DNA from: an uncultured Chthonomonadaceae bacterium | GTDB lineage: Bacteria > Armatimonadota > Chthonomonadetes > Chthonomonadales > CAJBBX01 | Direction: 5' to 3' | NCBI GenBank assembly: GCA_964396385.1 | Contig: CAYNFH010000002.1 | Location: forward strand, 1,047-65,046 | DNA: 64,000 nucleotides | Part shown: in pieces, positions 25,326-61,134 of the stretch | Numbering within the stretch: position 1 is the stretch's first letter | Layout of the letters: the number at the start of each line of letters is the position of its first letter | Position numbers and translations under genes: made by a program | Notes under the pieces: generated by a model | What the model was told of the DNA's origin: nothing | What the model saw: only the letters and a program-made list of their open reading frames with translations | Databases searched by the model: none

Positions 25326-25374
25326 AGCCTGTTCTCCTTTTCAACTGCGAGCAGTGCGACTTCTCGGTACGCGG

Positions 25375-26478
25375 CTACTGAGGCGTGAGCAGGAAGGCGT
25401 GGACCTGGTCGTTGATGTAGCCGTCGCCTATGATCTGGCCGGCGTCATTGATGGCCCAGGCCCGCAGCAGAACGCGCCAGCCGGAATCCGGGGGAATCAG
25501 GTCGTTGAGGTCGTAGACCGTCCCGCTGTCGTACAGGAAGGCGAAGTGGTAGCCGAAGTAGTACTCCGCATAGCCCACCACCTGCCCGAACGAATTGATG
25601 CTATAGGCCGTGCTGCTGGTGCTGGGTCCCAGCGCGCTTGCCGTCAGATCGGTCATTCCTACGGTGTCGCGCCACAGGAACGCATGCGACACGCCGCTGC
25701 CGGTAGTCGAGACGCCGACGACCTCGCCGTTAACCCCTATTCCCGACCCGGAGCTGAAGGTGCCGCCGAGCGTGCCGAGGTCCCGGATGGCTGCCGGTTG
25801 CGGGCTGTCCCACCGGACGGCGTGCGTCAGGCCCGCCGCGGTGAGAGAGGTCCCTGCGATCTGGTTGGCATCATTGACCCCGTTGGCGAAGCTCTCGGGA
25901 CCGCCAAGCGTGCCGAGGTCCTTCATGCCGTTCTGCCGGTTCCAGAAGAAGCCATGCCGCGGATTGGGATACGGGCCGGTTCGGGAGTAGCCGACCACTG
26001 CCAGGAGCGGCTCGTCGATGTTGTTGATGGCCTGCGCGGAAGCTTCCGCTCCCGGCGCGAGCACGCCCAGGTCCTGCGGGAAGTAGTCCGGCGGCTCCCA
26101 AAGGATGGCGTGATGGCCGCCGGAGTCCTGGATGTCGCCGGCTGCCGCGCCGGCCGCGTTGATGCCGTTGGCCACGCTGGGGGCGGTGGCGGGGAAGGCG
26201 GGAGCGTTGGGCAGCACCGCGATGGCGCCCGTCGTCGCGTTCGGGAAATCGGGCGTCCAGAGAAAGGCGCGGCCCGTCCCGTTTGGCAGGTAAGAACCGC
26301 CCACGACCTGGCCGCCGATGTTCAGTCCGAAGGCGTTAGAGCCCACCCGGCCGCTTGAGCCGCCGAGGGTGCCGAGGTCCGTGATGGCGAAGCTCGGCTG
26401 TGCGGCGGCGGGCCGCAGGATACACGACGCGGCGAGAGGGATTACAGCAGCGGTGATCTTGAGAATCGAGCGCATCAT
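25375..26478 (-). CDS. HAF-repeat extracellular protein
   Basis: Signal peptide plus repeated GG...A.GIN..GQVVG......HAFLW units (RAFLWTP, HAILWEP, HGFFWNR, HAVRWD, HAFLWRD, FAFLYD, HAFLLTPQ). Confidence 0.8.
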   Translation of the reverse strand: MMRSILKITAAVIPLAASCILRPAAAQPSFAITDLGTLGGSSGRVGSNAFGLNIGGQVVGGSYLPNGTGRAFLWTPDFPNATTGAIAVLPNAPAFPATAPSVANGINAAGAAAGDIQDSGGHHAILWEPPDYFPQDLGVLAPGAEASAQAINNIDEPLLAVVGYSRTGPYPNPRHGFFWNRQNGMKDLGTLGGPESFANGVNDANQIAGTSLTAAGLTHAVRWDSPQPAAIRDLGTLGGTFSSGSGIGVNGEVVGVSTTGSGVSHAFLWRDTVGMTDLTASALGPSTSSTAYSINSFGQVVGYAEYYFGYHFAFLYDSGTVYDLNDLIPPDSGWRVLLRAWAINDAGQIIGDGYINDQVHAFLLTPQ

Positions 26479-26541
26479 TTTCTACTCCCTTTCAGCGGGA
26501 AACACGAACGTTGTCAAACGTGGCCCTGCGTGGGCCGCGGA

Positions 26542-27786
26542 TCACGGGCTAAACGTGTAGACACTGACGTCGCTATTGCCACCGCGGTTGGCTGTGAAGA
26601 CCAGGGTTCCGTCGAAGCTGAAAATGACGCCGGCCGCGGATGCTCCAGAATCGTCGCTGGACTCAGGGGAGCCAGTCACGTTGGTCATGGTGGAGGTATC
26701 CAGTACAGACAATTTGTTTGAATACCGCAGCACTGCTACGACGTAGGCGCCCGTCGGGTCTACGACCAGTCCGCTGACGGCGTCCGCCACCGTGGTGGAA
26801 CCGATCTGCAAGAGCGAGAGTGCCCCTGTCCCAGGGTCAATGCTGTACTGTACGACTCTCCCATCATTCGTCCCGGCATAGAGGCTGGAAGCGTCTGGAC
26901 TGAGGGCTATGCTGCCCGAGCTCGAGACACCATTGGGAAGCGTGAATGGCGAGCCACCGACTGCCCCAAGAGTACCGTCATCGGCGATCTTGAACACAGA
27001 GATATTGTTCGATCCCTCGTTGTCAACATACAGCCGGTTATCCGGACCCGCAACCAGCCTTGGAGGAGCATACGCACCGCCGAACCCGGCGCCGCTCCCT
27101 CCTGTGGCCACAACCGCGCCAGCCGTCAATGTGCCGTTCGGGTTGACGCTGTAGCTGCGTACGGTGTTGGGCGAAGAGTTATTTGCGACGTAGATGAAGT
27201 CCCCACCTGGCACGGAGACATACTGGATGCCGTTCAGCGGCGCTGCCGAATCACCTGGGGATACTGCCTGAATTTGCGCAAGCGTACCGTCTGGTGCCAC
27301 CGAATACACCGTCAATTCGTCCGCGTTTCCGCTGATTACGTACAATCTGTCCCCAGCAGGACTGAGCGATAGTCCGGAAGCGGCGGTACATGGTGACGCG
27401 GAGTATGCGCCTTGGGGAGACAGCGAGCCGTCGCCGCCGACGTTTAGCACGGAGATGTTGTTGCTGTTCTGGTTCGTGGTGAACAGAAGGCTCTGATCGG
27501 GGCTGAGCGCCAGCATGTTGGTATAGCTGCCCTGGCTGAAGACGAAGGGCGAGCCCGGGATGCTGGTGAGTGGACCTTGGGCACCCCCCGCCGATGCCAA
27601 TGCCGCGCACAGGAGTCCTGCGCCGAGAGTCCAGGTCAGGTGCAGCGAATGGGGTACACGACTGCCATTGCCGGTTTTCAGATTGCACAAAGCTGATTCC
27701 CCCTTCAAGCGGTTTCCATGTTGTGCCGGACAACTCCGGTTGGATACTTCCTTTACCTCCATGCCGCGATGCCGAGACCCCTGCAA
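26542..27786 (-). CDS. Secreted 7-bladed beta-propeller (lactonase/YVTN-like) protein; start uncertain
   Basis: Repeated blades NNISVLNVGGDGSLSPQG, DELTVYSVAPDGTLAQ, NTVRSYSVNPNGTLTAG, NNISVFKIADDGTLGAV, VVQYSIDPGTGALSL and SDVSVYTF. The signal-like LGAGLLCAALASAGGAQG begins ~50 codons into the ORF. Confidence 0.7.
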   Translation of the reverse strand: MQGSRHRGMEVKEVSNRSCPAQHGNRLKGESALCNLKTGNGSRVPHSLHLTWTLGAGLLCAALASAGGAQGPLTSIPGSPFVFSQGSYTNMLALSPDQSLLFTTNQNSNNISVLNVGGDGSLSPQGAYSASPCTAASGLSLSPAGDRLYVISGNADELTVYSVAPDGTLAQIQAVSPGDSAAPLNGIQYVSVPGGDFIYVANNSSPNTVRSYSVNPNGTLTAGAVVATGGSGAGFGGAYAPPRLVAGPDNRLYVDNEGSNNISVFKIADDGTLGAVGGSPFTLPNGVSSSGSIALSPDASSLYAGTNDGRVVQYSIDPGTGALSLLQIGSTTVADAVSGLVVDPTGAYVVAVLRYSNKLSVLDTSTMTNVTGSPESSDDSGASAAGVIFSFDGTLVFTANRGGNSDVSVYTFSP

Positions 27787-27825
27787 GGATCATCTCGGGA
27801 GGTGTGCACCGGTCGCGTATCATGG

Positions 27826-28797
27826 TCATGGCAACTTAAGGCCGGTGAAGGTCCAGAAGAAGAACGACAGCGTGTTCCCAAACTGATCGTACATCGCCCC
27901 GTCCAGAGCCAGGTCGACATTGGCGCCCGGCGGGCCCGCCGTAGATGCAAACGTGAACGTAACCGTATTCGTGGTGTGGTTGGGAAGCGAGAAGTCTACA
28001 GGAAGGGGCGTGAGCGGGGAGACCTCCGCGCCCAGGCCCACATCGTCGACCTGAAGGACTGGGATATTGTCGTTGCTAAAGTTGTTGAACCGTAGGTCCG
28101 CGGAGTACTTCCCGTCGGCGAGCCGCCGCAGACCGACCAGCCGGATGAAGAAGCCGGTATCCTGGGGTGAACCCTGGCTCTCCGTGACCTCGACGGCGAA
28201 AGACCCCGTGTTCCCGCGCCAGCCCCACTCGTCCATCGTTCCCAGAAGCAGCCTGGTGGCCCCATCCGGCACCACGACCTGCCTCAGTGTTCCTGACTGG
28301 GTCACTCCCGAGCCGATGAAAAAGACTTGCTGTGCGTCGGGGGCAATGCTCCCGTAGTCCCGATCGTCACGCGTGCTGAAGTCAAGACTGGTGGGCCGAG
28401 GCAACTGGTTGGGCTGGAAAGGCCCGAGGAAGACGCCGAGCAGAGAATTCATAGGAGCAATGATGTTGGAGTTGTCAAACTCCGGTCCGGCCTGGTGCGT
28501 TCCGACGCGCAGGGCATCTCCATCCGGCGGATCGTGAGGAATGCCACCTCCCGCGTCAACGGAGCCGGTGGCCGCGAAAGTCACGATGTCACCCGGGTTG
28601 ACCGGGATGCCCGGCACCTGGATGGGCGATTCCGACGGAGCCGAGTCTCCCGCCCACGCCACCGTTCCGTTGGGCATTCCCGCCAACCATGGGTTTGCAT
28701 AACCTGGCACGCGCACGTTGACCGTGATTTGGGCAAAGGCGATTTGTGTGGTGAGCAGGAGCAGAGTGAGTGTTAGCAACCGCCGCAACAGATTCAT
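27826..28797 (-). CDS. Secreted hypothetical protein
   Basis: The internal ATG 28797 is preceded by GAAGGGGA. Clear signal peptide MNLLRRLLTLTLLLLTTQIAFA; no family recognised. Confidence 0.7.
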   Translation of the reverse strand: MNLLRRLLTLTLLLLTTQIAFAQITVNVRVPGYANPWLAGMPNGTVAWAGDSAPSESPIQVPGIPVNPGDIVTFAATGSVDAGGGIPHDPPDGDALRVGTHQAGPEFDNSNIIAPMNSLLGVFLGPFQPNQLPRPTSLDFSTRDDRDYGSIAPDAQQVFFIGSGVTQSGTLRQVVVPDGATRLLLGTMDEWGWRGNTGSFAVEVTESQGSPQDTGFFIRLVGLRRLADGKYSADLRFNNFSNDNIPVLQVDDVGLGAEVSPLTPLPVDFSLPNHTTNTVTFTFASTAGPPGANVDLALDGAMYDQFGNTLSFFFWTFTGLKLP

Positions 28798-29225: not shown

Positions 29226-29272
29226 AATATAAGCCTCCGCTCGCCTCCTGTCAATGAGTATTTACACCCATT
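29226..29272 (-). promoter_or_regulatory. Sigma70-type promoter TTGACA-17-TATATT with upstream dyad AATGAGT-N6-ACCCATT
   Basis: On the minus strand the -35 is 29249-29254, the -10 is 29226-29231 and the dyad is 29253-29272. The elements are AT-rich against a GC-rich background. Confidence 0.55.
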
Positions 29273-29295
29273 TCTTGGCAGGCTGGGCACGTTCC

Positions 29296-30927
29296 TCACG
29301 CCGTGTACCCGCACACCCAGAGCCGGCCGGCGTTGCCTGACGCGGCGCTGGTGGGGACGAGGCCGGGTGACAAGGGCAGTCGGGACTGGACCTCTCCGGC
29401 GGGAGTCAGGACCGCGATCTCCCGTGTCCGGGAGCAGGGCACGTAGAGCCTGCCCTCGGAATCGACCGACAGGCGACATTCGTCGAGGCCGGTAAGCGGC
29501 ACGGACCGAACAAACTGGCCGTTCACATCGAACTGCTCCACCATCCGGTCCCCTTCCCGTCGCGCCACGGCGTACACGTGGCCGGCAGAGTTCACGGTCA
29601 GGCCGAGGTAGTGCCAGCCGGGGTCCGGCCCCGTTATGGCGCCCGCCGGTGTGCCGTCCGGGTCCCAGATCCGTATTAAGCCGGGCGTGAAGTCGCCAGG
29701 TGCTCCATAGATGCGGCCATCTGGCCCTACGGAGACCTGGAAGTACCAGCCGTCTATGAACCGGCGCACCGTGGTGCCGCCGTCCTCGAACGCCAGGATC
29801 GCATTTGTCAGCCAGCCCGATGTCGCCAGGAGCCGCCCGTCCGCATGGAATGCAAGGCTCAGCGGGCCCACCAGCCGGATCCCGATCTCCGATCCGCCGG
29901 TGAACGTCCGGACGTACTCCCCACCCGGGGTGGACTCCGTAATTGCTCCGCGGCTAAGCCCGTCCTGCGGATGCAGGTCGTGCGCGACCAGGAGATTGCC
30001 GGGCTTGAAACCGTGCTCCGCGGCACGGTCCGGTACGACCGCGATGCTCCGCGCTGCCTCAATGACCTCCTGGCCGAACACGCGTAGGATGCGGCCATCT
30101 GGTCGCAGCTCGCATATCGCGCCGCGCGGCCACTCACGGGGCGCGTCGCCATGGACCTGCCGCTCCATCGCCGCGCTCACCATCAGCAAGAACAGACCAA
30201 GCGCGGCGATAGGTGCGGCCCGACCGGTCTTAATCGGCGGCCTCATCTCCAGCGCCGTGGCGCAGAACGCCCGCAAGGGCTGGACGCCGCGCTCGTGCCG
30301 GCGCGACCTCTCGAGCGACATATCCAGTCCGTCCGGGTCGTGGTACCCCAGCTCTCTGGCGCGGGCAGCCGCCTGGATGGGACCCCGCACGCCGAGCTTG
30401 CGGTAGATGTTCCCGACGTGGCGGTCCACCGTTCGCGGGGCGATGTCCAGGAGCACCGCAATGTCGGCGTGCGGTTTGCCGGACGTGAGTTGCCACAGCA
30501 CCTCGAGTTCGCGGCTGGACAGGAAAGGATGGCCCGCGCAGTCCGGCATCGGGGCCGGCCGCTCGCGCGGGAAGAGACTTCGAAAGAGAAACGCTAAGGC
30601 ATCGCCGCTACCGAGCGATTCAGGCAGGCCCAGGATCTGCTCTGCCAGCACGCCGCCGGAGCCCAGCAGCCCGCCGATGTCCTCCGCGATACGCAGGAGC
30701 GGCTGCAGGTCACCGGCCGGTTCCGGTGCGTCCAGCGGTTGAGCGTGCTGGACCTTGAGCGTGCCTGTGCCTACCACCGGCGCGGCGAGGGCCTCGGCGG
30801 CCAGCAGGATGGTGGTGAGCTGGCCGCGCTGCGCCGCCGTGGGGCCGGTGTAGGCGGGCGGTAGCTGCACCGGCTCGGAATCGGCTGGACGGGACTTCTG
30901 GGTGGAGCGCGTGTGACGCCTGCTCAT
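29296..30927 (-). CDS. Membrane-anchored LuxR/GerE-type HTH regulator with C-terminal NHL/beta-propeller domain
   Basis: HTH is LSSRELEVLWQLTSGKPHADIAVLLDIAPRTVDRHVGNIYRKLGV. There is a single hydrophobic segment, APIAALGLFLLMVSAAM. About 290 aa of propeller-like repeats follow (DGRLLATS, DGRIYGAP, AGHVYAVA, EGRLYVPC). Confidence 0.8.
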   Translation of the reverse strand: MSRRHTRSTQKSRPADSEPVQLPPAYTGPTAAQRGQLTTILLAAEALAAPVVGTGTLKVQHAQPLDAPEPAGDLQPLLRIAEDIGGLLGSGGVLAEQILGLPESLGSGDALAFLFRSLFPRERPAPMPDCAGHPFLSSRELEVLWQLTSGKPHADIAVLLDIAPRTVDRHVGNIYRKLGVRGPIQAAARARELGYHDPDGLDMSLERSRRHERGVQPLRAFCATALEMRPPIKTGRAAPIAALGLFLLMVSAAMERQVHGDAPREWPRGAICELRPDGRILRVFGQEVIEAARSIAVVPDRAAEHGFKPGNLLVAHDLHPQDGLSRGAITESTPGGEYVRTFTGGSEIGIRLVGPLSLAFHADGRLLATSGWLTNAILAFEDGGTTVRRFIDGWYFQVSVGPDGRIYGAPGDFTPGLIRIWDPDGTPAGAITGPDPGWHYLGLTVNSAGHVYAVARREGDRMVEQFDVNGQFVRSVPLTGLDECRLSVDSEGRLYVPCSRTREIAVLTPAGEVQSRLPLSPGLVPTSAASGNAGRLWVCGYTA

Positions 30928-30972
30928 CCGCTGGAGCTCCTTTGTCGTGGTCTCTTGAACAGGCGCAGCCTC

Positions 30973-31019
30973 ATTATCGTGCCCGGCCTGCGTTGCGTCA
31001 ATGGGTATTTACACCCATT
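30973..31019 (-). promoter_or_regulatory. Sigma70-type promoter TTGACG-17-GATAAT of the LuxR-type gene with perfect dyad AATGGGT-ATTTAC-ACCCATT
   Basis: -35 at 30996-31001, -10 at 30973-30978, dyad at 31000-31019. AAAGGAG SD and ATG 30927 follow after a ~39 nt leader. Confidence 0.65.
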
Positions 31020-31175
31020 TTTGTGGCGCTTGGCCGCGAATCCTGGCAGAACCGCGGCGCGGTTGACTTTTGCGCCGGGCGGCCCTAAGATTCCATGCAG
31101 GGCGGAGCCGAGACGGGAGGAAGCGCAGGGTGTCGAAGAGGGACGTCTACCACGAGGTATAGAAGAGGTCGCCGA

Positions 31176-31511
31176 ATGGATCGAATGAGGAACTATACGG
31201 CAATCGTACGAAGTGTCTTGCGAGAACTAGCGGATCGCTTTCCGCCTAACGACGACGTAACCGCCGAGCTCATACTGGATGATGCCGCCGGTCACTACGA
31301 GCTGATGCTCGTGGGATGGGAAGGTGATGACCGTGTCCACGGCTGCGTGGTTCACATGGACGTGCGCGATGGCAAGGTCTGGATCCAGCATGACGGAACG
31401 GAGGACGGCCTCGCGAGCGATCTGGTGGCCGGGGGCATTCCCAAGGACCACATCGTGCTCGCCGTCCACCCTTCCTACGAGCGACCCTACACGGGCCACG
31501 CCGTCGCCTGA
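31176..31511 (+). CDS. xisI: XisI family protein
   Basis: 111 aa starting at ATG 31176 (AGAAGAGG SD). YTAIVRSVLRELA...HYELMLVGWEGDDRVHGCVVHMDVRDGKVWIQHDGTEDG...LVAGGIPKDHIVLA is the XisI signature. Confidence 0.85.
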   Translation: MDRMRNYTAIVRSVLRELADRFPPNDDVTAELILDDAAGHYELMLVGWEGDDRVHGCVVHMDVRDGKVWIQHDGTEDGLASDLVAGGIPKDHIVLAVHPSYERPYTGHAVA

Positions 31512-31523
31512 AGCAGAGAGAAA

Positions 31524-31545
31524 GGGCGGCCCAACCGGGCCGCCC
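31524..31545. terminator. Bidirectional terminator hairpin between xisI and the giant operon
   Basis: GGGCGGCCC-AACC-GGGCCGCCC. T-rich runs follow on both strands (TCATATTT on plus, TTTCTCTCT on minus). Confidence 0.6.
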
Positions 31546-31555
31546 TCATATTTGC

Positions 31556-31584
31556 GATTCCTGAACCCCGAACCTTGAACCCTC
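31556..31584. repeat. Heptamer array GATTCC-(TGAACCC/CGAACCT)3 abutting the stop of the 613-aa ORF
   Basis: gattcctgaaccccgaaccttgaaccctc. Confidence 0.8.
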
Positions 31585-33425
31585 TATTGGAGCGGTATGG
31601 CGTCCGCGAAGACGAGGCGGCGCGTGGCCTCCGGGTTCGAGGGGCTCCAGCCGCCGTCTAGGACCTCGAACTCCTGGATCACCAGCCGGTAGTTGCTCTT
31701 GTCTCCGGGCAGCGTGATGTTTCCACGGTAGTTGGCGGGAGAGCCGCCGTCGTCCTTCAACTCGATTGGATCGATTCCCGCCGCCGGCACCCAGCCGATG
31801 GTTGGGCCGGTCTGCCCGGCCAGAGCGTTAGGCGCAGAGGCGCCGAGGTTTGCCGCCGTATTCGGTTGCTTGGTCTCGATGATCACCACCACCTCCGCCC
31901 GACCGCGCTTCGGCGTTTGAGAAACCACGCCGGTGAAGGTCACGGCCACCTGGTCTGCTGTGCCGCCCGGCACCGGCGCCAGCGTCACGCTTCGCTCCGG
32001 AGTGAGCTGGATAAAGTCCGCGCGCACCACCTTGGAGAGATGGCAGTCGTTCACCGCGTACGGCTGGTACCGCGCCAGCGCCAGCCGCACAAAGGGCGTG
32101 TACTGCTCCGGCATCTTGATCTCGATGTCGCAGTACCAGAGGTCCCGCGTGGGGTCGTACTTCACGTCGTGCGGCGCGATGTTCACCGCGAAGTTGTAGT
32201 TGTCCGCCAGCTCCGCAAGCGTGTACTTCGGCGCCTGCGGCAGAATGCCGGGGTTGATGCGGATGATACTGGTGGGAGCGGGCGACGGCTTGACCTGCAT
32301 AACGGTTGACCTCGGAATGGCCAGCCGCAGCAGCGGCTTCGACGCGGGGGCGGGCGCCGGAGCGGGCGCCGCAGGCTGCTTCATGAGCGTGACCGCCTTC
32401 ACCAGGGTCAGTACCAGCGGCGGCTTGTCGCCGGCAAGAGACTGGACCGCCAGCGGGAAGTCTCCCACCCCCAGCTCGGCGTTCCGCGCAGGAGCGGTGT
32501 TCCAAATCGGGTCCTTGCCCCAGAGCGTCACATACGGCTCCAGCGTGGGATTGACAGCGGCGGCCGGCAGCAGTCCCCCTGTGGGCGCCAGAAGTACCGC
32601 CAGCTTCTCGTCGTCGCCGGAGGAGTACCAGGGCCGATCCAGGTAGATTCGGAGCCCGCCTCCGGATCGCTTGGTGGCGTTGGCGCTGCGCTCCCACTTG
32701 AACTGCGGCACGATGTACAGCAGGCTCGGCGCGTCCGGCCGCTTGGAGCTCGGCACGTGCAGGTCCACCGTGGCGGAAGGCCTCTGAAAGTCCGTGGGCT
32801 GCAGGTTCTTATCGGCGAAGAACTGCGGATACCGGGTGGTTGCCACGCAGGAGTAGGTCACCTTCCGGTGCTTAGTGTCGTGGAACTCGTGTCGGAAGCC
32901 GTTGGCCGAGTCGGGAGGAAGCACAAGCTGCTTCTGACCGTAGAACACCTGGGTCTCAAATGCCACGGACTGTCCCGGCACCTGGAGCGGAGGCCCCGCG
33001 GCGCGCAGGTCCACCCACTCCGTCCACGTGCCGCCGATGTTAATCTTCTGCGTGCTGTTGCCGTGGACGTACAGGTTGTCATCGGCCAGGATGGCATATG
33101 TATCGCCCACCGCCCGTCCGGCCCGGAAGTTGGGGCCGAACTTGGGTGGATCGATGGGCTGCTGAACGGCGTGAACAATAGTAATCTGCCGGTAGGGCGT
33201 GAACATCCAGTGCTGGCCGGAGCCCGCCAACTGGCGGAGCTGGTCCATTCGAGGCGCCGCGATACCCTCCTCCAGCAGCCACCGGTAGAGCCCCATGCTG
33301 GTGACGGCATTCGGGTCCATTACGGAGCTGATCAGCACGTTCTCGTGCATCTCGCCCTTGGGTACGGAGACCGTCAGCACGCGGGCCGCCGGGTCCCACC
33401 TGGGCGGAGCCGAGCCCTCCACCAC
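31584..33425 (-). CDS. Giant-operon ORF3 (613 aa), uncharacterised; probably the C-terminal continuation of ORF2 across an in-frame TAG
   Basis: Complex, non-repetitive sequence with no SD before GTG 33425. It is in the same frame as ORF2, five sense codons after that ORF's TAG. Confidence 0.75.
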   Translation of the reverse strand: MVEGSAPPRWDPAARVLTVSVPKGEMHENVLISSVMDPNAVTSMGLYRWLLEEGIAAPRMDQLRQLAGSGQHWMFTPYRQITIVHAVQQPIDPPKFGPNFRAGRAVGDTYAILADDNLYVHGNSTQKINIGGTWTEWVDLRAAGPPLQVPGQSVAFETQVFYGQKQLVLPPDSANGFRHEFHDTKHRKVTYSCVATTRYPQFFADKNLQPTDFQRPSATVDLHVPSSKRPDAPSLLYIVPQFKWERSANATKRSGGGLRIYLDRPWYSSGDDEKLAVLLAPTGGLLPAAAVNPTLEPYVTLWGKDPIWNTAPARNAELGVGDFPLAVQSLAGDKPPLVLTLVKAVTLMKQPAAPAPAPAPASKPLLRLAIPRSTVMQVKPSPAPTSIIRINPGILPQAPKYTLAELADNYNFAVNIAPHDVKYDPTRDLWYCDIEIKMPEQYTPFVRLALARYQPYAVNDCHLSKVVRADFIQLTPERSVTLAPVPGGTADQVAVTFTGVVSQTPKRGRAEVVVIIETKQPNTAANLGASAPNALAGQTGPTIGWVPAAGIDPIELKDDGGSPANYRGNITLPGDKSNYRLVIQEFEVLDGGWSPSNPEATRRLVFADAIPLQ

Positions 33426-33440
33426 CTGGATCAGGAACGG

Positions 33441-35834
33441 CTACGCGTCGAACCAGATCGAAGCCGCATCGAAGGTCACCACCTGCACGGCCATCTGTGC
33501 TCCCGCCGGCAGGTTGCGCAGCGACACTCCGGTGACTATCGGGTCGGGAAGGTAAGGCAGGGCGGTGAGCTGGCCGGAAGGGATGATCACCGGCTTCTCA
33601 CCGCGCACCGGGTCCGCGGTCATCTTGCTCTTATCCAGGTCGCGCAGAGTGCCCTCATGGGTAGAGAGCACCGTGTAGGTCTTGTTGCCCTTGGAGTCCT
33701 GGAGCATGGTGTTCGGGCCATCGAACTTGCCGTACTGCTCCGCGGTCATCTGGTCCGATACGGGCGGTGTGACGTAACGGCGCGTGTCCGGCTCCAGCGT
33801 GGGCGTGTTGTAGTTGCTGCGGATCACGAGGGTATCGACCGATTCGGCCGGCTTCGGGTCCGCACAGTAGGTAAGGTCCGGCGAGCCCAGCGGGTTGTAC
33901 CGGCCGTACAGGTAGTCGCCCGTAGCCACATTGGCGGCGTTGGCCTGGGGCGAGTCCATGGCCAAAGTGTTGCCGGCCAGATCCACGATTCGGGCACGAA
34001 TGCGGTAGGTTGTGCCGTACCGCAGGCGAGGAAGGGATCCTGGGGGCACCGTAAAGGTGGGCACGACCTTTATGCCCGTTGAAGCTGTGTTGGCCGCCGG
34101 ATCGTACTTCGTCATCTGGCCCTTGTTGTCCAGGGACTTGCCGGGCCGCTCCACCGCCAGGCTCCAGCCGGTCCAGCGGATGATGGCGTCGTTGACGAAT
34201 AGCTCTTTGGTATTGGGGTCACTGGAAGCGGCGAGCTGAATGAAGCCTTCGTCCGTCACGCCGGAGATGGGTGGCGCGCTCGGGTCTATGAACTTGTAGG
34301 TGCCCGTGCGCTGGCATACGGAGTGCCACTTCTTGGTCTGATTGTCCCAAACGTCCACGGCGTAGCCGCGCACGAGGTCGGATGCATAAAGGATCTTTTC
34401 ACCGGCTACCGCGCTGGCGGGCTCGACCGCTCCGCCTATTCTCGGCCGAAGGAGCTGCCTGGCAGCCCCTGGCCGCACTGCGCCTGCGACCGGCGCCTCT
34501 ACGACGGCCGTTCGGAGAATGTTCCTGTTGCCGATGATGCCGGCCTCAAGCTCAAGCGCCCTCTTGAAACCGAAGTACGTGAACTTGGCCCGTTCGTTCT
34601 TCGTCACGGCCAGACCGGAAGCGTAGATCGCCGGAAGCCCCTGCTCGTCTACGGGCTCCTGGTTGGCCATCGCCAGGATGGCGGCCTTCTGCGAGACCTT
34701 CATCAACTGTGCGACTGTCGGGCTGAACGTCTGGACCTGGTCCGGCGAACAGAGCCCGTGCCTGACAGCCATGTCCCTAAACGCGATGGTCTGCCGCTCG
34801 GAGCGGAGCAACTTACGCTCCATCCGCCGCTGGAGCATGGTGCTAAACTCGATGAGGTTTAGCGCCGCCCCCTCCACGTCCAAACTGATGAGCTGATAGT
34901 TGGGAGGGCTCAGAACCAGCATCCCGCTCTTCACGTCGCTGCCCGCCGGGTCCGGCGCGGGCAGGAAGGCCGGCATCTCGATGGCGGTCTTGGGCGTCGT
35001 GTTCGTTGTTGCTGCGGGAGCGGTCACCTCCACGTTCACGGTGGAAGCCGCGGGCGCGGTTGGGGGAAGCGTAAACTCCAGGTCGATGACCAGTCCGACG
35101 CGGCGCATGATCACCGGCAGAGAGCCGAGAGAGGCTACCTGCTGATGGAAGTCGAGCACGGGCGGCGCTGGCTTCGGCGTTACTTTCCGGATGGCCGAGC
35201 CGGCCGATGCCTGGCGAACGAAGAAGCCCTTCACCGCCGCGAAATTCAGCCTGGCCGCATCGGCGTTGATCTGGCCGTTCTGCAGAATCGGCGTTTTGGC
35301 CATGAAGATGTTCTTCTGGACCGTGGTGTGGATCTCCGTGAACAGCTTTTCCTCGGGCGTAGGCTCACTGGGCGAGGCGTCCAGGCCGCCATAGTAGCCA
35401 ATGGGCGCCAGGTACGCCTGGGTGGTCAGGATTTCCGTGGGCGGGGGCGCCTCCGGGTGCTGTTCCGCCACCTGCGCGTACTGCTTGCGTATGAATCCGT
35501 GCACCTCGGCCACATCGTACGAATGGATGGGCTTGGCCGTGTTGTCCACGAAGTTGAAGGAGTTAACCGGCGTGCTGGCGGGGAACAGCGCCTTCCAGTA
35601 CTGGCTGCTGGGCTTGTCGCCCACCACCGTCGCCGGAGTCACGGTATTGCCGTAGCGCACCGTCCACTTCTGCGTAGCCAGCGTAGCCGGCCAGTCCAGA
35701 AAGCTGGGAAACTCCGCCAGCGTGGTTGTCTTCGCATTTCCGGTCAGCCGTGGTGAGACCAGGACCGAAACCTGGAGCTTACCGTTCTTAACGCCGTTCG
35801 GCACGGCCGTCCATATTATCGTCTGCGAGCTCAT
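33441..35834 (-). CDS. Giant-operon ORF2 (797 aa), uncharacterised, no signal peptide
   Basis: GGAG SD 6 nt before ATG 35834. N-terminus is MSSQTIIWTAVPNGVKNGKLQVSVLVSPRL; no catalytic motif recognised. Confidence 0.8.
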   Translation of the reverse strand: MSSQTIIWTAVPNGVKNGKLQVSVLVSPRLTGNAKTTTLAEFPSFLDWPATLATQKWTVRYGNTVTPATVVGDKPSSQYWKALFPASTPVNSFNFVDNTAKPIHSYDVAEVHGFIRKQYAQVAEQHPEAPPPTEILTTQAYLAPIGYYGGLDASPSEPTPEEKLFTEIHTTVQKNIFMAKTPILQNGQINADAARLNFAAVKGFFVRQASAGSAIRKVTPKPAPPVLDFHQQVASLGSLPVIMRRVGLVIDLEFTLPPTAPAASTVNVEVTAPAATTNTTPKTAIEMPAFLPAPDPAGSDVKSGMLVLSPPNYQLISLDVEGAALNLIEFSTMLQRRMERKLLRSERQTIAFRDMAVRHGLCSPDQVQTFSPTVAQLMKVSQKAAILAMANQEPVDEQGLPAIYASGLAVTKNERAKFTYFGFKRALELEAGIIGNRNILRTAVVEAPVAGAVRPGAARQLLRPRIGGAVEPASAVAGEKILYASDLVRGYAVDVWDNQTKKWHSVCQRTGTYKFIDPSAPPISGVTDEGFIQLAASSDPNTKELFVNDAIIRWTGWSLAVERPGKSLDNKGQMTKYDPAANTASTGIKVVPTFTVPPGSLPRLRYGTTYRIRARIVDLAGNTLAMDSPQANAANVATGDYLYGRYNPLGSPDLTYCADPKPAESVDTLVIRSNYNTPTLEPDTRRYVTPPVSDQMTAEQYGKFDGPNTMLQDSKGNKTYTVLSTHEGTLRDLDKSKMTADPVRGEKPVIIPSGQLTALPYLPDPIVTGVSLRNLPAGAQMAVQVVTFDAASIWFDA

Positions 35835-35864
35835 AGTTATCTCCGTTGAACAGCTCTACCACCT

Positions 35865-35927
35865 CCCCCAACCCCTCCTTGGTAAGGAGGGGGAACTCCC
35901 TCCCCTTCGCAAGGGGAGGGTTGGGGT
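35865..35927 (-). other. Intercistronic nested hairpins (possible three-way junction) built from CCCCTCC/GGAGGGG-type repeats
   Basis: Hairpin 1 is CCCCTCC-ttggtaa-GGAGGGG (35872-35892). Hairpin 2 is CCCTCCCC-ttcgcaa-GGGGAGGG (35898-35920). They are enclosed by CCCCAACC / GGTTGGGG. Confidence 0.6.
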
Positions 35928-35935
35928 GGGGTGTG

Positions 35936-38900
35936 CTACGCAAAAGCAAACGACGCGCAGTAGGCATCCCAGTCCGGCTCATCCACCTGATCGTGGAATT
36001 TGCCGGTGCCGCCCTGCGGCGCCTGGCCGAGAGCGAACCCCGTTGGGAGCGTGAGGCTGGCAAGCCTCCGGTCCTCCACCGGCAGCGCAGCCGTGTGGGC
36101 CGGCGAACCGGCGAAGGTCTTGGTATACGTGCATCCCACGGTGGCGCTGAAGAATAGGATGCTGATGTGGAACTCTATCTGCGCCGTGCCGGTGACGGAA
36201 CTGGAGTTGTCGACGTTCTGCACATACTCCAGTCCCAAGTACAGCTCAAGAGACAGGCTGATGATTCCCAGCACGCTCACGTACCCACCGGCCTGGAGGT
36301 AGCCCGTCAGGTCGGTCGGATGTCGGGTTACGTCTTTGCCGTGCGAGTCCTTCAACGGGGTCTTACCGTCTGCGGCGAGGACAGTCTCCGGCTTCTTCAG
36401 GCTATAGGTGAGACCTGCCTTGATGTAGACGCCACCGCTCGCGATGGTGATGTCGAAGTTGATCATCGCGCCGAACTGGAAGCCCGCGGTGAGCTCCTGG
36501 AGCTCGTGCACGTCCAGCAGCAAGTGGCACCAGCCTCCGCCGCCGAGCAGCCACACCGTTAACAGGAACGGGTCGCTCTGGGAGCAGAAGTCGAAGGCGA
36601 AGTTCACGGGATCGCCGGTGAATGGTATCCCGACGCCTGCCTTCACCTTGATGTTCTGGAGGCTGAACAGCCCCACGGAGATGGTGGGTATGCCCACCTT
36701 AACCCCGGCATAGATGCCGAGCGGGCTGGTGGTGGGATGGATGTCCGGTCCGATATCGAAGCCGCCTACATTGGGCATGGCGCACGCTGCGGGCAGCATG
36801 GTGTCTGTGTCGGCGTGGCCCCCGCCACCGGAACTGGAGCTGCTGCCCATTCCGGGGATGATGTCCTTCAGCTTATTCACGAAGGCCAGGGCGCCCATGA
36901 ACTTGATGCCGTCGTCCTTGATGCTGGGATCCGGCTTGAAGCTGCTTTCCGGCGACGAGGTGAACTTGAAGTAGTTGAAGTCGATCTCGATACAGCCGAA
37001 CAGCGCCATCTTGAATTCGTTGAGCTTGCCCTCCACGCTCCACGTAGGCGCGGGCGGTTTGGTGCCCGCCATGTCCTTGATGTTCTTGGCGATGTTCGCC
37101 GCCGCCTGGGTCGCGCTCAGGCTCGCGCTTGGGTTCGTGGGCGCGGCCGTGGGTTTGATCACCTCGATCTTGGCCTTGAGCGAAAAGCAGTTCTTCACGT
37201 CCTTGGGCACGAAGAGCGTGCTAGCCGCCGGTGGGTCGTCGGCATAATTCGCGCTCGGAGGGATCGCGATGATCTCCGGCGCCCAGTCCAGGATGATCTC
37301 TACCCCCGACTTCTTCTTGTTCTCCTCGCTGTCATCGTTGGGATACTCCACGGAGTGGATCTTGGGGACGTTCTTGCCGTCCCCGCCCACACCGCCCTTC
37401 ACGAGGTCCGCAAGCACCAGGCAGCCCAGGATGGCGCCGTTATTGGCAAAGAACTGCTTGGGGTCAAAGTTCCAGTCGGTGCCGTCACCGAAAGCACATT
37501 CACCAGGGCGAGCGTCGTCCCGTAACGCGATCTTGCCCGGTACGGCTCCCCCGACCGGCCCGTACTTGCGGGAGAGGGCCGTCATATTCATATTGGGCGA
37601 GCCCACTCCCCCGGTTTTGTCCCCGTTCGCGGCCATGCTGCCGTCGGGTTTCTGGCCGGAGAAGGTCACGTTTACCGGCGCGCCGGCCACCTGAACGTAC
37701 AGCTCGCTGGCGTTACCGGGGCCGAATCCGTTCTTGAGGAAGAGGTCCGGATAGTCCACGCTGGTTGCGTTGTTGAGGTCCGCGAAGGCCCGCAACGCCG
37801 GAACGTTCACCTCCGCCATCTCCAGCGCGGGATAGAACTGCACGCGGCCCGCGGCCACAGTCTGCGGAGGCTGCGCCTTCCAGGTGATGGACTCGGTCTC
37901 CAGCCGCGTGTCGCCCAGCTTCAGGCTGTCCGCGAATACAATCTTGGCCCCGTTTGTAGGACCGATGCGGCGCGCGGCATTCTCCGGTCTGTTATAGTCA
38001 AACATGATGCCCAGCAGGGGCATGGGGTTTCCCGATGGCAGGGCGAGGCTGGACTCTACCCAGCCCAACGGCATAGTGAACTGGGTCTGGTAGCCGTTGC
38101 GGTCGGTGCCGATGAGCACGAAGCGGAAGTCCTCGCCCCCAACGCGCGGCCAGAAGGCGTCCTGTCCGTGCCCGGCCAGGCTGTTCTTGGCGGGATCCCT
38201 GGTCGGATCGTCCAGCATGGGAGTGACCTTCGTGAGGATCTGCACGTCCGTGAACGGCGTGTTGCGCCCGCCGAACATCTGCAGGCCGTCCGGATAGCTC
38301 TTTTCCGGTTCCCGCACCACAATGAACATCCGCTGCCGGTTGACCGCTATCCGCTGGCTGTTCACGAGCACCACCTTGCGCTCCGTGATCTTCACGAGCG
38401 AAGCGCGGTGGCCAAACGGCATCAGGTAGCCTCGATACACCACCTTCACGAACTGGTCACGGCCCATTGTGGCGCGGTGCTGCCACTCCTCCACATCCAG
38501 GCCCTGCACTTCTTCCCAGTGTCCATCCAGCTCTATCCAGGCGCCGATGGAGGAGAGCATGAGCCGGTCCACCGGGATTGCCGACGGAGTCACCGGCTTG
38601 CCGGTAGGAGTTTTGAGGCCGGTGAAGTCCGAGGAGAGCCGCACTATCTCGTAACGGTCGTCCGCATCCAGCGACGTCCGGAACGGGTTTATGGCGTCTC
38701 CCGGATACATGTAGTGGCCCGGCTTGGCGGCGGTGTTGCTTGGACAATCCGGAGACCAGACCGCCCTCACCGTGCGGTAGTAGGCGTCACTCTCGTCCGG
38801 CTTGCCGTTGTTCATCACGGCGAGCCGGGTGTGCCACAACTCCGTCCTCCCGTCAAAGCTAATAGGAGCGGATGCGTGGCTCCAGCCTGAGCCGCCGTGA

Positions 38901-41011
38901 GGCGAAAGGTGAAGCCGCCATGGCGCCTCGATGGTGGTCTCCGTCGGCAGGGGCTCGCGAATCTGGGGCAGGAGTATGATCCCGGGATTTATCTTGATGA
39001 TGGATTCCGGAGGACGAGTGAGTGCCACGGGCGACTTCAGCGTGCTCTGTAGCAGTGCGGTCGCCGGCGGCTTCGGAGGCGGCGTAACCTGGTGGGACTG
39101 GAGGTCCTTGCCGCGACTCGCAAGCGTCGTCTGGAGCTTGTTTATCCTCAGACGGTTCGCATCAGCCGCCGCAAAGGCCGCGACGCTGACCTGCTTATCG
39201 TTTAGGATGTTGCCAAGCTGGCCCAGGAAAAACACAGGGGCAGGCGGCGGCTCCGCGACGGGTACTACGCTCGGTGTGAGCTTGGTCCAGTCAAGCAGCG
39301 CCTCGATCGTGTATGGGATCGCGTTGACGGACTGCGGCACGAAGAACGCCAGCCGCGACTCCCCCGCGAGACGGGATGCAGCGGGCAGCGTGATGGGCTC
39401 ATCTCCACTCTTGCTCGCGTCCGGGTCTTTCGCGCCCGGTGGATTCTTGTCGCCCGGCTTCACGCCCGGCTGGGTTTCAAAGAAGGCCTGTTCGGCGATG
39501 TTCTGAGACGGGAAGTGAACGATCAGGAAAGCGCCCTCGCTCGAGCTCGTCCTTTCCAGTCGGGGCCCGCTGCCGTCGCTCTTGAAGTTGAGGTTCACCA
39601 TCTCTATCTCGAGCGCCAGCATGTCGTCGGGGCGGGTGATTTTCATGCTGGGGCCCTGGCGGCCCAAGGCCATGAGGATTGCCGGGCTCAACTTGATCTG
39701 AAGCCTGGCCTGAGGCTGAAGGGCCGCTCGCTGTCCCAACCCGTAGGATGCGAGCTCAATGTGGGCATCCTGCGGCATGGGGCCGTAATTGACGATGGCG
39801 CCCTCCAGCGGGGCCGCGAATCCAAGCAGCGCCGGAGCGACGTGCAGGCGGTGCGCGCGGTCCTCGTCCCCCACCAGCTCGAACGGCGCCGCGCCGTCGC
39901 GGTGGCCTACGAGCACGCTGCAGCCGTTGCCGTGCAGCCAGCGGGGCTCGTCCTCATAATCCGCCAGCAGCGCGTGGCGCTCCCTGCCGCCGTCGAACCC
40001 GATGGCATAGCGGACGTTGCGCAGCCCAACGGAAAACGGCGCGCCGTCATCCGCCAGGGCGACATCGCCCGGCTCATACCGCGCCGCACTTCGGGAGGAG
40101 GTGGACTCGCCCAGCAGCGCGTAGCGCCGCCCGCCCTCCGCGGTCTCGGAGCACTCCAGCCGCAGCGTGTCGAGCAGGCCGTCTTCCTGCACCAGACGCC
40201 CAATGCGCGGCTTGGCAATGCGCGGCTTGAGCGGCCAATTCTCCTCCCCCCGTCTGAGCGATACGAGCGTCCGCCGGCTATCCGGGGACAGCATCGCGCT
40301 TGCCGCACCCGGAGCCAGCAGCGCAATCTCCACGCACTGCGCCTCGACGGCCCCATCCGGCGTATCCGCCCGCGCAATGCTGCCCTCTGACGACTGACGA
40401 CCGACGACCGACGACAGGCTGAATGTCCAGTCCGGCCGGAAGCTGGCCTGTGCTCTGCCCCCGAGCCGAAGGCCATACCTGCCATTGAGCGCCCACTCAT
40501 AAGCCTGGAGGCGGACCGGAGAAGCCGCCTCCGCCTGCCCCAACAGCCACCGCTCGAAGGGCGCCTCACACCGGAATCCCCCGACCGCCATCTGGAGCGA
40601 CATCTTCCATCCAGCGCCTGAGCGGCGAAGCTCACAGGTGAAGTCGGCGGGAAGGTCTGTGCCGGGGTACCTGCCGCCTTCCAGCGCCACTCGGATGTGC
40701 CGTGCGCTCTCCTCTACCTTCAGCTTGGGAGTGCCGGAGAAGCAGCGGGCGTCCACCACCCACCGTTCCTTTCCTTCCAGCTTGAATGCGATGCGGTTAT
40801 CGGAGCGCTCCACCTCCAGCGGCGCTCGCAATGTGTCCCCCAGCGCACGGGCGACCGGCGAGACCGCGGCCGCAGCGGCGCCGGTGAGGCCGAGCAGGTC
40901 GCGGCGGGAGAGGACGAAGCGGCCGGGCGGGACTTGTTGGGTTGTGGCCGCGCGCGCGCCGGGGAGCCGGCGGGTGCGGAGCGCGTTCAGGTCCAGACGA
41001 ACAGCTTTCAT
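35936..41011 (-). CDS. Giant-operon ORF1 (1691 aa), uncharacterised, with a twin-arginine (Tat) signal
   Basis: N-terminus has FVLSRRDLLGLTGAAAAAVSPVARALG. The body is long and non-repetitive. The C-terminal ~330 aa are Gly-rich with alternating hydrophobic strands. Confidence 0.85.
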   Translation of the reverse strand: MKAVRLDLNALRTRRLPGARAATTQQVPPGRFVLSRRDLLGLTGAAAAAVSPVARALGDTLRAPLEVERSDNRIAFKLEGKERWVVDARCFSGTPKLKVEESARHIRVALEGGRYPGTDLPADFTCELRRSGAGWKMSLQMAVGGFRCEAPFERWLLGQAEAASPVRLQAYEWALNGRYGLRLGGRAQASFRPDWTFSLSSVVGRQSSEGSIARADTPDGAVEAQCVEIALLAPGAASAMLSPDSRRTLVSLRRGEENWPLKPRIAKPRIGRLVQEDGLLDTLRLECSETAEGGRRYALLGESTSSRSAARYEPGDVALADDGAPFSVGLRNVRYAIGFDGGRERHALLADYEDEPRWLHGNGCSVLVGHRDGAAPFELVGDEDRAHRLHVAPALLGFAAPLEGAIVNYGPMPQDAHIELASYGLGQRAALQPQARLQIKLSPAILMALGRQGPSMKITRPDDMLALEIEMVNLNFKSDGSGPRLERTSSSEGAFLIVHFPSQNIAEQAFFETQPGVKPGDKNPPGAKDPDASKSGDEPITLPAASRLAGESRLAFFVPQSVNAIPYTIEALLDWTKLTPSVVPVAEPPPAPVFFLGQLGNILNDKQVSVAAFAAADANRLRINKLQTTLASRGKDLQSHQVTPPPKPPATALLQSTLKSPVALTRPPESIIKINPGIILLPQIREPLPTETTIEAPWRLHLSPHGGSGWSHASAPISFDGRTELWHTRLAVMNNGKPDESDAYYRTVRAVWSPDCPSNTAAKPGHYMYPGDAINPFRTSLDADDRYEIVRLSSDFTGLKTPTGKPVTPSAIPVDRLMLSSIGAWIELDGHWEEVQGLDVEEWQHRATMGRDQFVKVVYRGYLMPFGHRASLVKITERKVVLVNSQRIAVNRQRMFIVVREPEKSYPDGLQMFGGRNTPFTDVQILTKVTPMLDDPTRDPAKNSLAGHGQDAFWPRVGGEDFRFVLIGTDRNGYQTQFTMPLGWVESSLALPSGNPMPLLGIMFDYNRPENAARRIGPTNGAKIVFADSLKLGDTRLETESITWKAQPPQTVAAGRVQFYPALEMAEVNVPALRAFADLNNATSVDYPDLFLKNGFGPGNASELYVQVAGAPVNVTFSGQKPDGSMAANGDKTGGVGSPNMNMTALSRKYGPVGGAVPGKIALRDDARPGECAFGDGTDWNFDPKQFFANNGAILGCLVLADLVKGGVGGDGKNVPKIHSVEYPNDDSEENKKKSGVEIILDWAPEIIAIPPSANYADDPPAASTLFVPKDVKNCFSLKAKIEVIKPTAAPTNPSASLSATQAAANIAKNIKDMAGTKPPAPTWSVEGKLNEFKMALFGCIEIDFNYFKFTSSPESSFKPDPSIKDDGIKFMGALAFVNKLKDIIPGMGSSSSSGGGGHADTDTMLPAACAMPNVGGFDIGPDIHPTTSPLGIYAGVKVGIPTISVGLFSLQNIKVKAGVGIPFTGDPVNFAFDFCSQSDPFLLTVWLLGGGGWCHLLLDVHELQELTAGFQFGAMINFDITIASGGVYIKAGLTYSLKKPETVLAADGKTPLKDSHGKDVTRHPTDLTGYLQAGGYVSVLGIISLSLELYLGLEYVQNVDNSSSVTGTAQIEFHISILFFSATVGCTYTKTFAGSPAHTAALPVEDRRLASLTLPTGFALGQAPQGGTGKFHDQVDEPDWDAYCASFAFA
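40387..40418. repeat. Heptamer array (GACGACY)4 inside ORF1
   Basis: ctgacgactgacgaccgacgaccgacgacagg, encoding SSVVGRQSSEG. Confidence 0.8.
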
Positions 41012-41254
41012 GCGCTCAACTCCTAGCGGGATTCGACAGCATAGGTTAGGCGTACGTGCTCATTGCACGTGGATGGTAGACCGTTCTGAGGCGGAGGCAG
41101 CGCTCGCACCGGTCCGTCCCTCGCTTCGAGGCGCGGGACAGACCGGCTATAGCTCGCGGGGGCGGTGGATGAATCAGCGAAGGAAGAGGTACAGCCTTCT
41201 CTAAGCCATCGGATTCCGCTGCCAGCGGACGGATGAGCGGACTATAGTGCGGCC

Positions 41255-41297
41255 AGTATATCGGCGGGCCCACTCACCGTCAAGTGACGTATTTCAC
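41255..41297 (-). promoter_or_regulatory. Sigma70-type promoter TTGACG-17-TATACT of the giant operon with upstream dyad GTGA-CGTATT-TCAC
   Basis: -35 at 41278-41283, -10 at 41255-41260, dyad at 41284-41297. The string GGTGTGAAATAC resembles GGTGTAAATAC of the other two boxes. Confidence 0.55.
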
Positions 41298-41398
41298 ACC
41301 GCTCGACCGGACTAATTTACAGACCAGCGCCTAGGAATCCTACCAGCCGGGCGTGACGGGAGCGTGAACCCACAGGCTTATCTGCGTGACATGGCGGC

Positions 41399-48357: not shown

Positions 48358-48380
48358 GTTGATGCTCCCTTCAAACCTGG

Positions 48381-48421
48381 CGCTCAGGCGTTCAGGCGTT
48401 CAGGTCCGACGTCAGAACGCC
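48381..48421. repeat. Heptamer array (CAGGCGT)3 with short hairpin, in the spacer between fdhB and the nrfD-like gene
   Basis: cgctcaggcgttcaggcgttcaggtccgacgtcagaacgcc. Confidence 0.8.
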
Positions 48422-49261: not shown

Positions 49262-49276
49262 AGCAGTCTCCTAGAG

Positions 49277-54612: not shown

Positions 54613-54670
54613 TACTCTTCTCCTCTCTGCGGTTCTCAATGTGCTTGGCCGGCAGCGTTGTCCGACGCAA

Positions 54671-58548: not shown

Positions 58549-58550
58549 CC

Positions 58551-61115: not shown

Positions 61116-61134
61116 CGCAAGCCGGAGGTGAGCG

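Follow-up and report, generated by a model that had tools for sequence, protein, structure and literature searches.

Introduction

NarL and NarP carry a GerE/LuxR-type helix-turn-helix and bind as dimers to 16-20-base-pair (bp) dyads of TAC-type heptamers (consensus TACYYMT), which abut the -35 hexamer of the promoter. In NarL, the base contacts are made by Lys188, Val189 and Lys192 (PMC10853779); an engineered high-affinity site reads TACCCCTAAAGGGGTA (PMC4549865), and the natural 7-2-7 site of yeaR, TAACCAATAAATGGTA, lies immediately upstream of the -35 hexamer with its centre at -43.5 (PMC10853779). The lux box, an inverted repeat of 20 bp, is found at -42.5 (PMC3376562), and the canonical class II position is -41.5 (PMC10853779). 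In one-component regulators such as ToxR and CadC, an N-terminal DNA-binding domain in the cytoplasm is joined by a single transmembrane helix to an extracytoplasmic sensor, and how transmembrane transcription regulators reach promoters from the membrane is an open point for the class (PMC10269533). In the current work, a regulatory locus is analyzed within a stretch of 64,000 nucleotides (nt) from a deep-branching, uncultured Chthonomonadaceae bacterium (contig CAYNFH010000002.1, positions 1,047 to 65,046; hereafter the window), in which the gene of a 543-amino-acid (aa) LuxR-type regulator (29296..30927, minus strand) lies between two promoters, P1 and P2, that share a 20-bp dyad. The two dyads are probably operators of the regulator encoded between them, acting at its own gene (P1) and at an adjacent operon for exported proteins (P2).

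The mechanism considered here, a LuxR/NarL-type dimer positioned at about -43, is already known from textbooks, and general principles are unchanged by the findings. What is new is the uncharacterised membrane-anchored family to which the regulator belongs, the unusual arrangement of its operator and the duplication history of the locus, which together present a concrete candidate regulator-operator pair for a membrane-tethered LuxR/NarL-type family that is apparently unstudied.

Promoters P1 and P2 share a 20-bp dyad at the -35 hexamer

The original prediction, made from the letters of the sequence, had described three promoters with 17-nt spacers, each preceded by an AT-rich dyad, and had suggested that all three are under the control of the LuxR-type regulator. 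The hexamers, dyads, spacers and strand were all verified; coordinates in this text are window positions, and P1, P2 and P3 are all on the minus strand. P1 (30973..31001; minus-strand region caaaAATGGGTGTAAATACCCATTGACGcaacgcaggccgggcacGATAATg) consists of TTGACG-17-GATAAT, matches 10/12 of the sigma-70-like hexamer positions and is followed by a leader of 39 nt to the regulator ATG at 30927. P2 (29226..29254; region aagaAATGGGTGTAAATACTCATTGACAggaggcgagcggaggctTATATTg) consists of TTGACA-17-TATATT (11/12) and is an internal promoter of the secreted-protein operon, with a leader of ≈422 nt, while P3 (TTGACG-17-TATACT, 10/12; region gcGGTGTGAAATACGTCACTTGACGgtgagtgggcccgccgaTATACTg), which together with its upstream dyad TGTGA-AATACG-TCAC spans 41255..41300, has a leader of ≈240 nt. 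These distances, predicted as 39, about 420 and about 240 nt, are correct if the transcription start site (TSS) lies 7 nt below the -10 hexamer, and the same assumption yields dyad centres of -43.5 (P1), -43.5 (P2) and -42.5 (P3), as had also been proposed.

P1, P2 and P3 are the three best-ranked sites in a promoter scan of 24-43 kb, and only four sigma-70-like sites of at least 10/12 are present in the whole window (0.67 being expected from Markov shuffles), the fourth being located at 54814 on the minus strand. No box or dyad was found upstream of this fourth promoter, and the box is therefore not a general trait of strong promoters in the window. The fourth promoter itself (54785-54814, minus strand; TTGACG-18-TACAAT) is situated upstream of a NADAR-domain gene (54154-54729), in a stretch of lower GC content (0.59-0.62) at ≈52-56 kb.

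Box 1 (31000..31019; AATGGGTGTAAATACCCATT), the putative operator at the regulator's own promoter, is a 20-bp dyad with perfect 7-nt arms, and box 2 (29253..29272; AATGGGTGTAAATACTCATT), which starts 23 nt past the regulator stop codon, differs from it by a single mismatch. The sequence common to both sites is a 24-nt box, AAATGGGTGTAAATACYCATTGAC, of which 23/24 positions are identical. When the 24-mer AAATGGGTGTAAATACCCATTGAC was searched for across the window, two occurrences were retrieved at ≤1 mismatch and none elsewhere at ≤3 mismatches, no match being obtained in 100 shuffles (0/100); searches with the dyad and core patterns likewise returned the P1 and P2 sites only. Both boxes end 21 nt before the -10 hexamer, with the last TT of the box forming the first two bases of the -35 hexamer, and under the TSS assumption given above their centre would fall at the position used in class II activation. 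Across 185,579 representative genomes, ATGGGTGTAAATACNCAT gave 37 single matches in unrelated taxa, many of them inside coding sequence, and no contig in this set contained two.

The regulator is predicted to be a membrane-anchored one-component protein

The regulator comprises an N-terminal region, a GerE/LuxR helix-turn-helix (residues 136-192), a transmembrane helix (238-260) and an NHL beta-propeller (269-543). The helix-turn-helix is identified by Pfam (PF00196 GerE, E=7.5e-14, residues 136-188), by phmmer matches to PDB structures of GerE, EsrB, CviR, RhlR, LasR, FixJ and VraR, and by helices at 138-192 in the AlphaFold2 model. Residues 1-135 are family-specific and contain, in the family alignment, the conserved motif LPxAFGDG...LF..LFP. 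The hydrophobic helix 238-260 is flanked on its N-terminal side by Arg/Lys, and this segment is kept in all full-length relatives. Residues 269-543 are modelled by AlphaFold2 as all-beta with a predicted local distance difference test (pLDDT) score of 85-95, and the best Foldseek matches of this domain are six-bladed NHL propellers, including the sensor domain of PknD (PDB 1rwi).

Considering this domain layout and the charged helix, the regulator is predicted to be a single-pass membrane protein with its helix-turn-helix in the cytoplasm and its propeller outside, a topology that follows from the positive-inside rule. With DNA-binding domain and predicted transmembrane segment in one polypeptide, it would be a transmembrane one-component regulator with a LuxR/NarL-type helix-turn-helix. 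The membrane anchoring had been missed in the original prediction. No Autoind_bind domain (Pfam, E≤0.01) was found in the regulator, which is consequently not a quorum-sensing LuxR protein, and no Response_reg domain was found by Pfam, which sets it apart from the NarL/FixJ response regulators; furthermore, the helix-turn-helix is central, not C-terminal, and is followed by the transmembrane helix and the 275-residue propeller.

Among described systems, the predicted layout is that of ToxR and CadC, which also act on few, mostly neighbouring target promoters; these proteins bind DNA through an OmpR-like winged helix, whereas the window regulator has a GerE/LuxR-type domain and a sensor most like the extracellular domain of the PknD kinase. 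Compared to NarL, with which it shares the type of helix-turn-helix and, if binding occurs as predicted, a dyad of TAC-type heptamers abutting the -35 hexamer, the regulator has no receiver domain or histidine kinase, being itself a membrane protein with an extracytoplasmic NHL propeller. Compared to LuxR, it shares the helix-turn-helix family and an operator of the same size at nearly the same position overlapping the -35 hexamer, as well as, by inference, an autoregulatory circuit with an adjacent target operon; it differs in having no acyl-homoserine-lactone-binding domain, in the placement of its helix-turn-helix and in its membrane anchor, and the sequence of its box is unrelated to the lux box. 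A literature search for a characterised example combining a GerE helix-turn-helix, a transmembrane helix and an NHL propeller found none.

A word-indexed search returned six relatives of the regulator (31-43% identity), and an exhaustive profile search among 1.84 billion representative proteins returned ≈60 clusters (at 50% identity) that are comparable in length and match from end to end. This is a genuine, if rare, family, for which no name exists.

A NarL-like dyad accompanies the regulator gene in related loci

Nine loci encoding relatives of the regulator (L001 to L009) were retrieved, four of which were supplied by a metagenome scan with the family alignment; L007 and L008 have the same sequence, and L009 matches the helix-turn-helix only. 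A conserved 20-bp, NarL-like 7-2-7 dyad with the pattern AATAC(N)CC(C/A)AA(A)GNNGTATT is present in six of the seven distinct loci. It is located before the regulator gene in L001 (position 1965, GATACGCCCAAAGGAGTATG) and L005 (position 64, AATACGCCCAAAGTAGTATT), and after the regulator stop codon in L002 (11510, AATACACCCTAAAGAGTATT), L003 (2142, AATACACCCAAAAGTGTATT), L004 (1747, AATACCCCCAAAGAGGTAAT) and L007/L008 (5415, AATACGCCAAAAGGCGTATT, a perfect palindrome). The dyads of the latter group start 2-50 nt past the stop codon and lie ahead of a signal-peptide or lipoprotein gene; in L002, this gene encodes a DUF3466 protein homologous to the third gene product of the window operon. A -10-like hexamer follows 20-23 nt past the end of each of these dyads, the terminal TT of which represents the start of the -35 position, and no other match to the family dyad was found in those loci at ≤2 mismatches. 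Apart from the regulator gene, no neighbour of the family box is constant, and this constitutes the main argument that the window box is the operator of this regulator.

In all six loci, the central part of the family box (TACGCCA-AA-AGGCGTA) is a 7-2-7 site of the NarL type, very close to the engineered NarL site TACCCCT-AA-AGGGGTA, which agrees with the GerE-type helix-turn-helix of the regulator. Divided into heptamers, the window box becomes GGGTGTA-AA-TACCCAT, in which the TAC ends point inward, the orientation being opposite to that of the NarL site; TACCCAT fits the NarL heptamer consensus, and GGGTGTA, when reverse-complemented, gives TACACCC, which L002 and L003 have as their promoter-distal heptamer. 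A 7-2-7 site of the NarL type (TAC ends outward, 2-bp gap) is not found in the window, nor is a hidden family box present elsewhere in it. Since the window box is unlike the family box, its link to the regulator rests on position, size and heptamer resemblance.

The difference in heptamer orientation can be set beside the recognition helix, a comparison based on seven regulator-operator pairs (seven proteins). The NarL sequence used for the alignment reproduces the residue numbers Lys188, Val189 and Lys192. At the positions of NarL 188/189, the window regulator has Asp168-Arg169, in place of the Lys188 equivalent, and the six relatives with a 7-2-7 box have KR, RK, KK, HT, KK and KK, that is Lys, Arg or His at 188; a further relative, P0005, also has Asp at the NarL Lys188 position. 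Across 50 family members, the recognition helix shows an invariant Thr-Val followed by high variability, and Asp at the Lys188 position recurs, for example, in P0170, P0171, P0175, P0185, P0188 and P0195. The flipped heptamers and the Asp at the Lys188 position fit a co-evolution of operator and recognition helix, as judged from these seven proteins. It may tentatively be proposed that in the window lineage the operator was turned inside-out, with both heptamers flipped in place at the -35 hexamer alongside a switch from Lys/Arg/His to Asp, within a membrane-anchored NHL-propeller family, and that the regulon then grew by promoter duplication (see below). The family 7-2-7 box on the one hand and the flipped window box with Asp on the other would then amount to a natural experiment on operator/recognition-helix co-evolution.

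Two of the related loci show further particularities. In L003, the regulator's own upstream region is without the family box and contains another dyad at 96-127 (AAGGGTAG-N12-CTACCCTT), which has GAAATACC inside, ends ≈20 nt before TACATT and is vaguely like the window box; a possible paralogy of the two L003 promoters was considered and abandoned, the alignment being unconvincing. In L002, the regulator homologue (9830-11472, on a nanopore-derived contig) is frameshifted and called as open reading frames (ORFs) of 334 and 156 aa, its N-terminus being also interrupted.

P2 is a duplicate of P1

The P2 region was compared to the whole window by blastn, and the best non-self matches of the interval between P2 and the operon are both to the regulator locus: 29273-29172 aligns to 31020-30917 (104 nt, 70%, E=1.5e-5), and 28981-28926 aligns to 30587-30532, corresponding to regulator codons ≈114-132 (56 nt, 77%, E=4e-6). 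The likeness of P1 and P2 runs past the box into the 5' leader, the ribosome-binding site and the first codons (ATGAGCAGGCG versus ACGAACAGGCG), the regulator ATG having been turned into ACG in the duplicate, and the paralogy is colinear across ≈350 nt. The segment 28926..29273 (minus strand) is accordingly a decayed partial duplicate of P1, its 5' leader and approximately the first 135 regulator codons, and the ≈420-nt leader of the exported-protein operon consists for the most part of this decayed copy, which ends just before the helix-turn-helix. As boxes 1 and 2 are located inside a colinear paralogous segment, they are not independent and derive from one ancestral sequence; the observation made in the original prediction is real for P1 and P2, their origin by promoter duplication having been missed.

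Identity between P1 and P2 is distributed unevenly, amounting to 23/24 in the box with TTGAC, 41% in the 17-nt spacer, 33% in the 40 nt upstream and 69% in the leader; in a permutation test, a 24-column window with 23 matches has p=0.0013. P2 is still an 11/12 promoter, although identity in the gene fragment behind it has fallen to 70-77%. P2 arose when P1 was copied along with the 5' part of the regulator gene, and the gene fragment has since decayed into a long leader, the box, -35 and -10 being kept. Those relatives for which both intergenic regions are at hand have the box in only one of the two; two boxes seem to be specific to the window lineage, as the duplication of P1 would explain. 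The locus may be viewed as a clear record of regulon growth, in which an autoregulated promoter was copied to a position before a neighbouring operon with the gene fragment still recognisable.

A motif seemingly shared by the P2 leader (TATAGTGGCCGAC...GCTTAGGAAG..TGTAC) and P3 was rejected, given that the P2 stretch aligns to regulator coding sequence; no significant blastn match was obtained between the P2 and P3 leaders.

Proposed control of the regulator gene and the exported-protein operon

According to the proposed model, a dimer of the regulator would bind the 20-bp dyad at a centre of about -43.5, the last two bases overlapping the -35 hexamer, and would in this manner control its own gene through P1 and the adjacent four-gene exported-protein operon through P2, presumably in answer to something sensed by the propeller. 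No terminator was found in the 22 nt between the regulator stop codon and box 2. Read-through from P1 into the secreted-protein operon is likely, and P2 would serve as an internal, regulated booster beside this read-through. The target operon (23991..28797, minus strand) encodes a 323-aa protein of unknown function with a signal peptide, a lactonase-like beta-propeller protein, a DUF3466 protein and an F5/8 type C protein; the genes are co-oriented with short gaps, an N-terminal signal peptide is present in 3/4 of the products, and it is uncertain where the propeller gene (a TTG ORF) begins. Autoregulation and control of the secreted-protein operon, as envisaged in the original prediction, are supported by the dyad found in six related loci, while the inclusion of the giant operon behind P3 is unsupported.

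Several observations weigh against this assignment. One relative, in locus L006, shows no box. The window box does not conform to the family box: with a position-weight matrix built from the six family sites, the best score anywhere in the window is 12 bits, compared to 29-35 bits for the true sites. Being copies of one ancestral sequence, the two window boxes count as one observation, and when set against the best-aligned blocks of the duplication (70-77%), the 23/24 identity is only moderately significant (p about 0.01-0.05, with the choice of window allowed for). Finally, the -35 hexamers of the window promoters are near consensus (TTGACG and TTGACA), which is unusual for class II activation.

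The last of these points bears on the sign of the regulation. The likeness to a class II activator site such as the lux box, drawn from the position of the dyad, holds, with NarL at yeaR being the closer parallel; the yeaR -35 hexamer is weak, whereas those of the window are near consensus. Poor -35 hexamers are expected for activator-dependent promoters, and most of the homologous promoters have them (GGTTCA, TTTGTT, TCGCCG and AGACCT), that of L007 being good (TTGACC). Because of the poor hexamers in most homologues, activation is slightly favoured over repression, but a site placed over a consensus -35 hexamer could equally occlude it. The original prediction had overlooked that promoters with near-consensus -35 hexamers may also be subject to repression.

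Alternative explanations of the dyads

It is unlikely that P3, and with it the giant operon (31584..41011, minus strand), belongs to the same regulon through a related dyad at about -43. P3 is among the only four near-consensus promoters of the window, its AT-rich dyad is centred at -42.5, it has GGTGT(G)AAATAC and TTGAC in common with the box, and the giant operon adjoins the regulator locus. Nevertheless, the third dyad, which had been regarded as a diverged relative of the first two, can be aligned to the box only in the form GGTGT-AAATAC-TCA-TTGAC, at the cost of three 1-nt indels, and GGTGTNAAATAC is expected 0.2 times per window at ≤1 mismatch. Relative to the GTGA-N6-TCAC dyad, the shared string is shifted by ≈4 nt, and the two resemblances therefore cannot both be meaningful; when the dyads of site 3 and the box are aligned on their centres, 6/14 arm positions agree, and blastn detects no similarity between the P3 region and P1 or P2. 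Taken together, the indels, the expected count, the register and the blastn result place the relatedness of site 3 not above chance. Moreover, three loci with relatives of the giant protein (L010-L012; 34-40% identity) lack a box of either type in the upstream region as well as a regulator homologue in the vicinity. A strong, intrinsic terminator-like hairpin follows the giant operon at 31515..31545 on the minus strand (GGGCGGCCC-GGTT-GGGCCGCCC then TTTCTCTCT; -28.2 kcal/mol, z = -5.0), and the xisI-family gene (31176..31511, plus strand; PF08869, E=3.8e-36) is convergent with the giant operon and divergent from the regulator gene; the terminator and the oppositely oriented xisI between the giant operon and P1 make the former a separate transcription unit. 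P3 is in itself a credible promoter, situated on the correct strand in a 387-nt intergenic region. As far as can be judged, it would be a separate, strong promoter whose dyad is explained more simply as a CRP/FNR-type site or by chance.

That the box is merely a relic of the segmental duplication, without operator function and with both promoters being constitutive, is quite unlikely. The colinear paralogy would account for the presence of two copies, and both promoters, being near consensus, would fire without an activator. A relic would not, however, be expected to show conservation of the box far above its flanks, perfectly symmetric arms in P1 and, in six distantly related loci, a counterpart of equal size in the same position with respect to -10 and -35.

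It is very unlikely that another dimeric factor, for example of the CRP/FNR family, acts on TGnGn-N6-nCnCA dyads at all three promoters with the LuxR-type gene as a bystander. Site 3 (TGTGA-AATACG-TCACt at 41283-41298) matches 9/10 positions of the CRP consensus TGTGA-N6-TCACA, is the only such site in the window and, like the sites of class II CRP promoters, abuts the -35 hexamer, its centre being ≈42.5 nt before the presumed start. The sequence of sites 1 and 2 is TGGGT-N6-AC(C/T)CA, in which the 6-nt spacing is unchanged and both Gs are preserved, and the three centres (-42.5 and -43.5) are near the canonical class II position. On the other hand, 0.87 matches at ≤1 mismatch are expected by chance per window, about as many as the single site found, with its one mismatch; P3 is already near consensus; no Crp/Fnr-family match was obtained among the ≈47 window ORFs scanned against Pfam; and the regulator-linked box in the relatives is of the NarL 7-2-7 type, not of the CRP type.

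Lastly, a reading of the dyad as an RNA hairpin for stability or termination at the 3' end of the regulator mRNA, to which the location of box 2 and the L002, L003, L004 and L007 boxes directly after the regulator stop codon and the good folding of some of them (L007, -11.1 kcal/mol; L003, -9.2 kcal/mol) would lend themselves, is scarcely credible in view of the position of box 1 and the L001 and L005 boxes upstream of the promoter of the regulator gene, the weak folding of 4/7 (-2.6 to -4.1 kcal/mol) with a U-tract in none, the conservation of sequence (AATAC...GTATT with an asymmetric CCCAAAG centre) and not of pairing via compensatory changes, and the fixed distance to the -10 hexamer.

The giant operon and other genes of the window

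The giant operon encodes a 1691-aa Tat-signal protein followed by ORFs of 797 and 613 aa. The 1691-aa protein (35936-41011, minus strand) begins with the twin-arginine signal RRDLLGLTGAAAAAV, contains no Pfam domain and has ≈27 detectable relatives, all of them unannotated; in L011, its homologue is immediately preceded by a tatA gene (9699-9869). The 797-aa and 613-aa ORFs share one reading frame and are split by an in-frame TAG plus 15 nt (33423-33443, ...FDA*PFLIQVVEG...), and in L010, L011 and L012 their equivalents form one continuous protein of ≈1390-1410 aa; the split could reflect a nonsense mutation, an error in sequencing or read-through of the stop codon. The P3 leader (41011-41250, minus strand, ≈240 nt) has a predicted folding energy of -95.5 kcal/mol (z = -2.8), with a long hairpin at ≈41105-41145, and holds a perfect 15-bp palindrome, TCCGCTGGCAGCGGA, at 41215-41229; no Rfam family matched the window at the gathering thresholds, nor did any match the P3 leader at E≤1. 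The xisI gene is preceded by a candidate plus-strand promoter, TTGACT-17-TAAGAT, at 31063-31091, and its listed ORF begins 27 codons too early.

Two respiratory gene clusters are also present in the window. The first (47359-52974, minus strand) encodes a molybdopterin oxidoreductase, the catalytic subunit of which appears split into ORFs of 276 and 929 aa, together with a 4Fe-4S subunit and an NrfD-type membrane subunit. The second (57637-63108, plus strand) encodes a caa3-type cytochrome oxidase with a fused subunit I+III, and CtaG; the best named relatives of its subunit I are from Armatimonadetes (55%), followed by those from Planctomycetes and Verrucomicrobia (≈50-53%).

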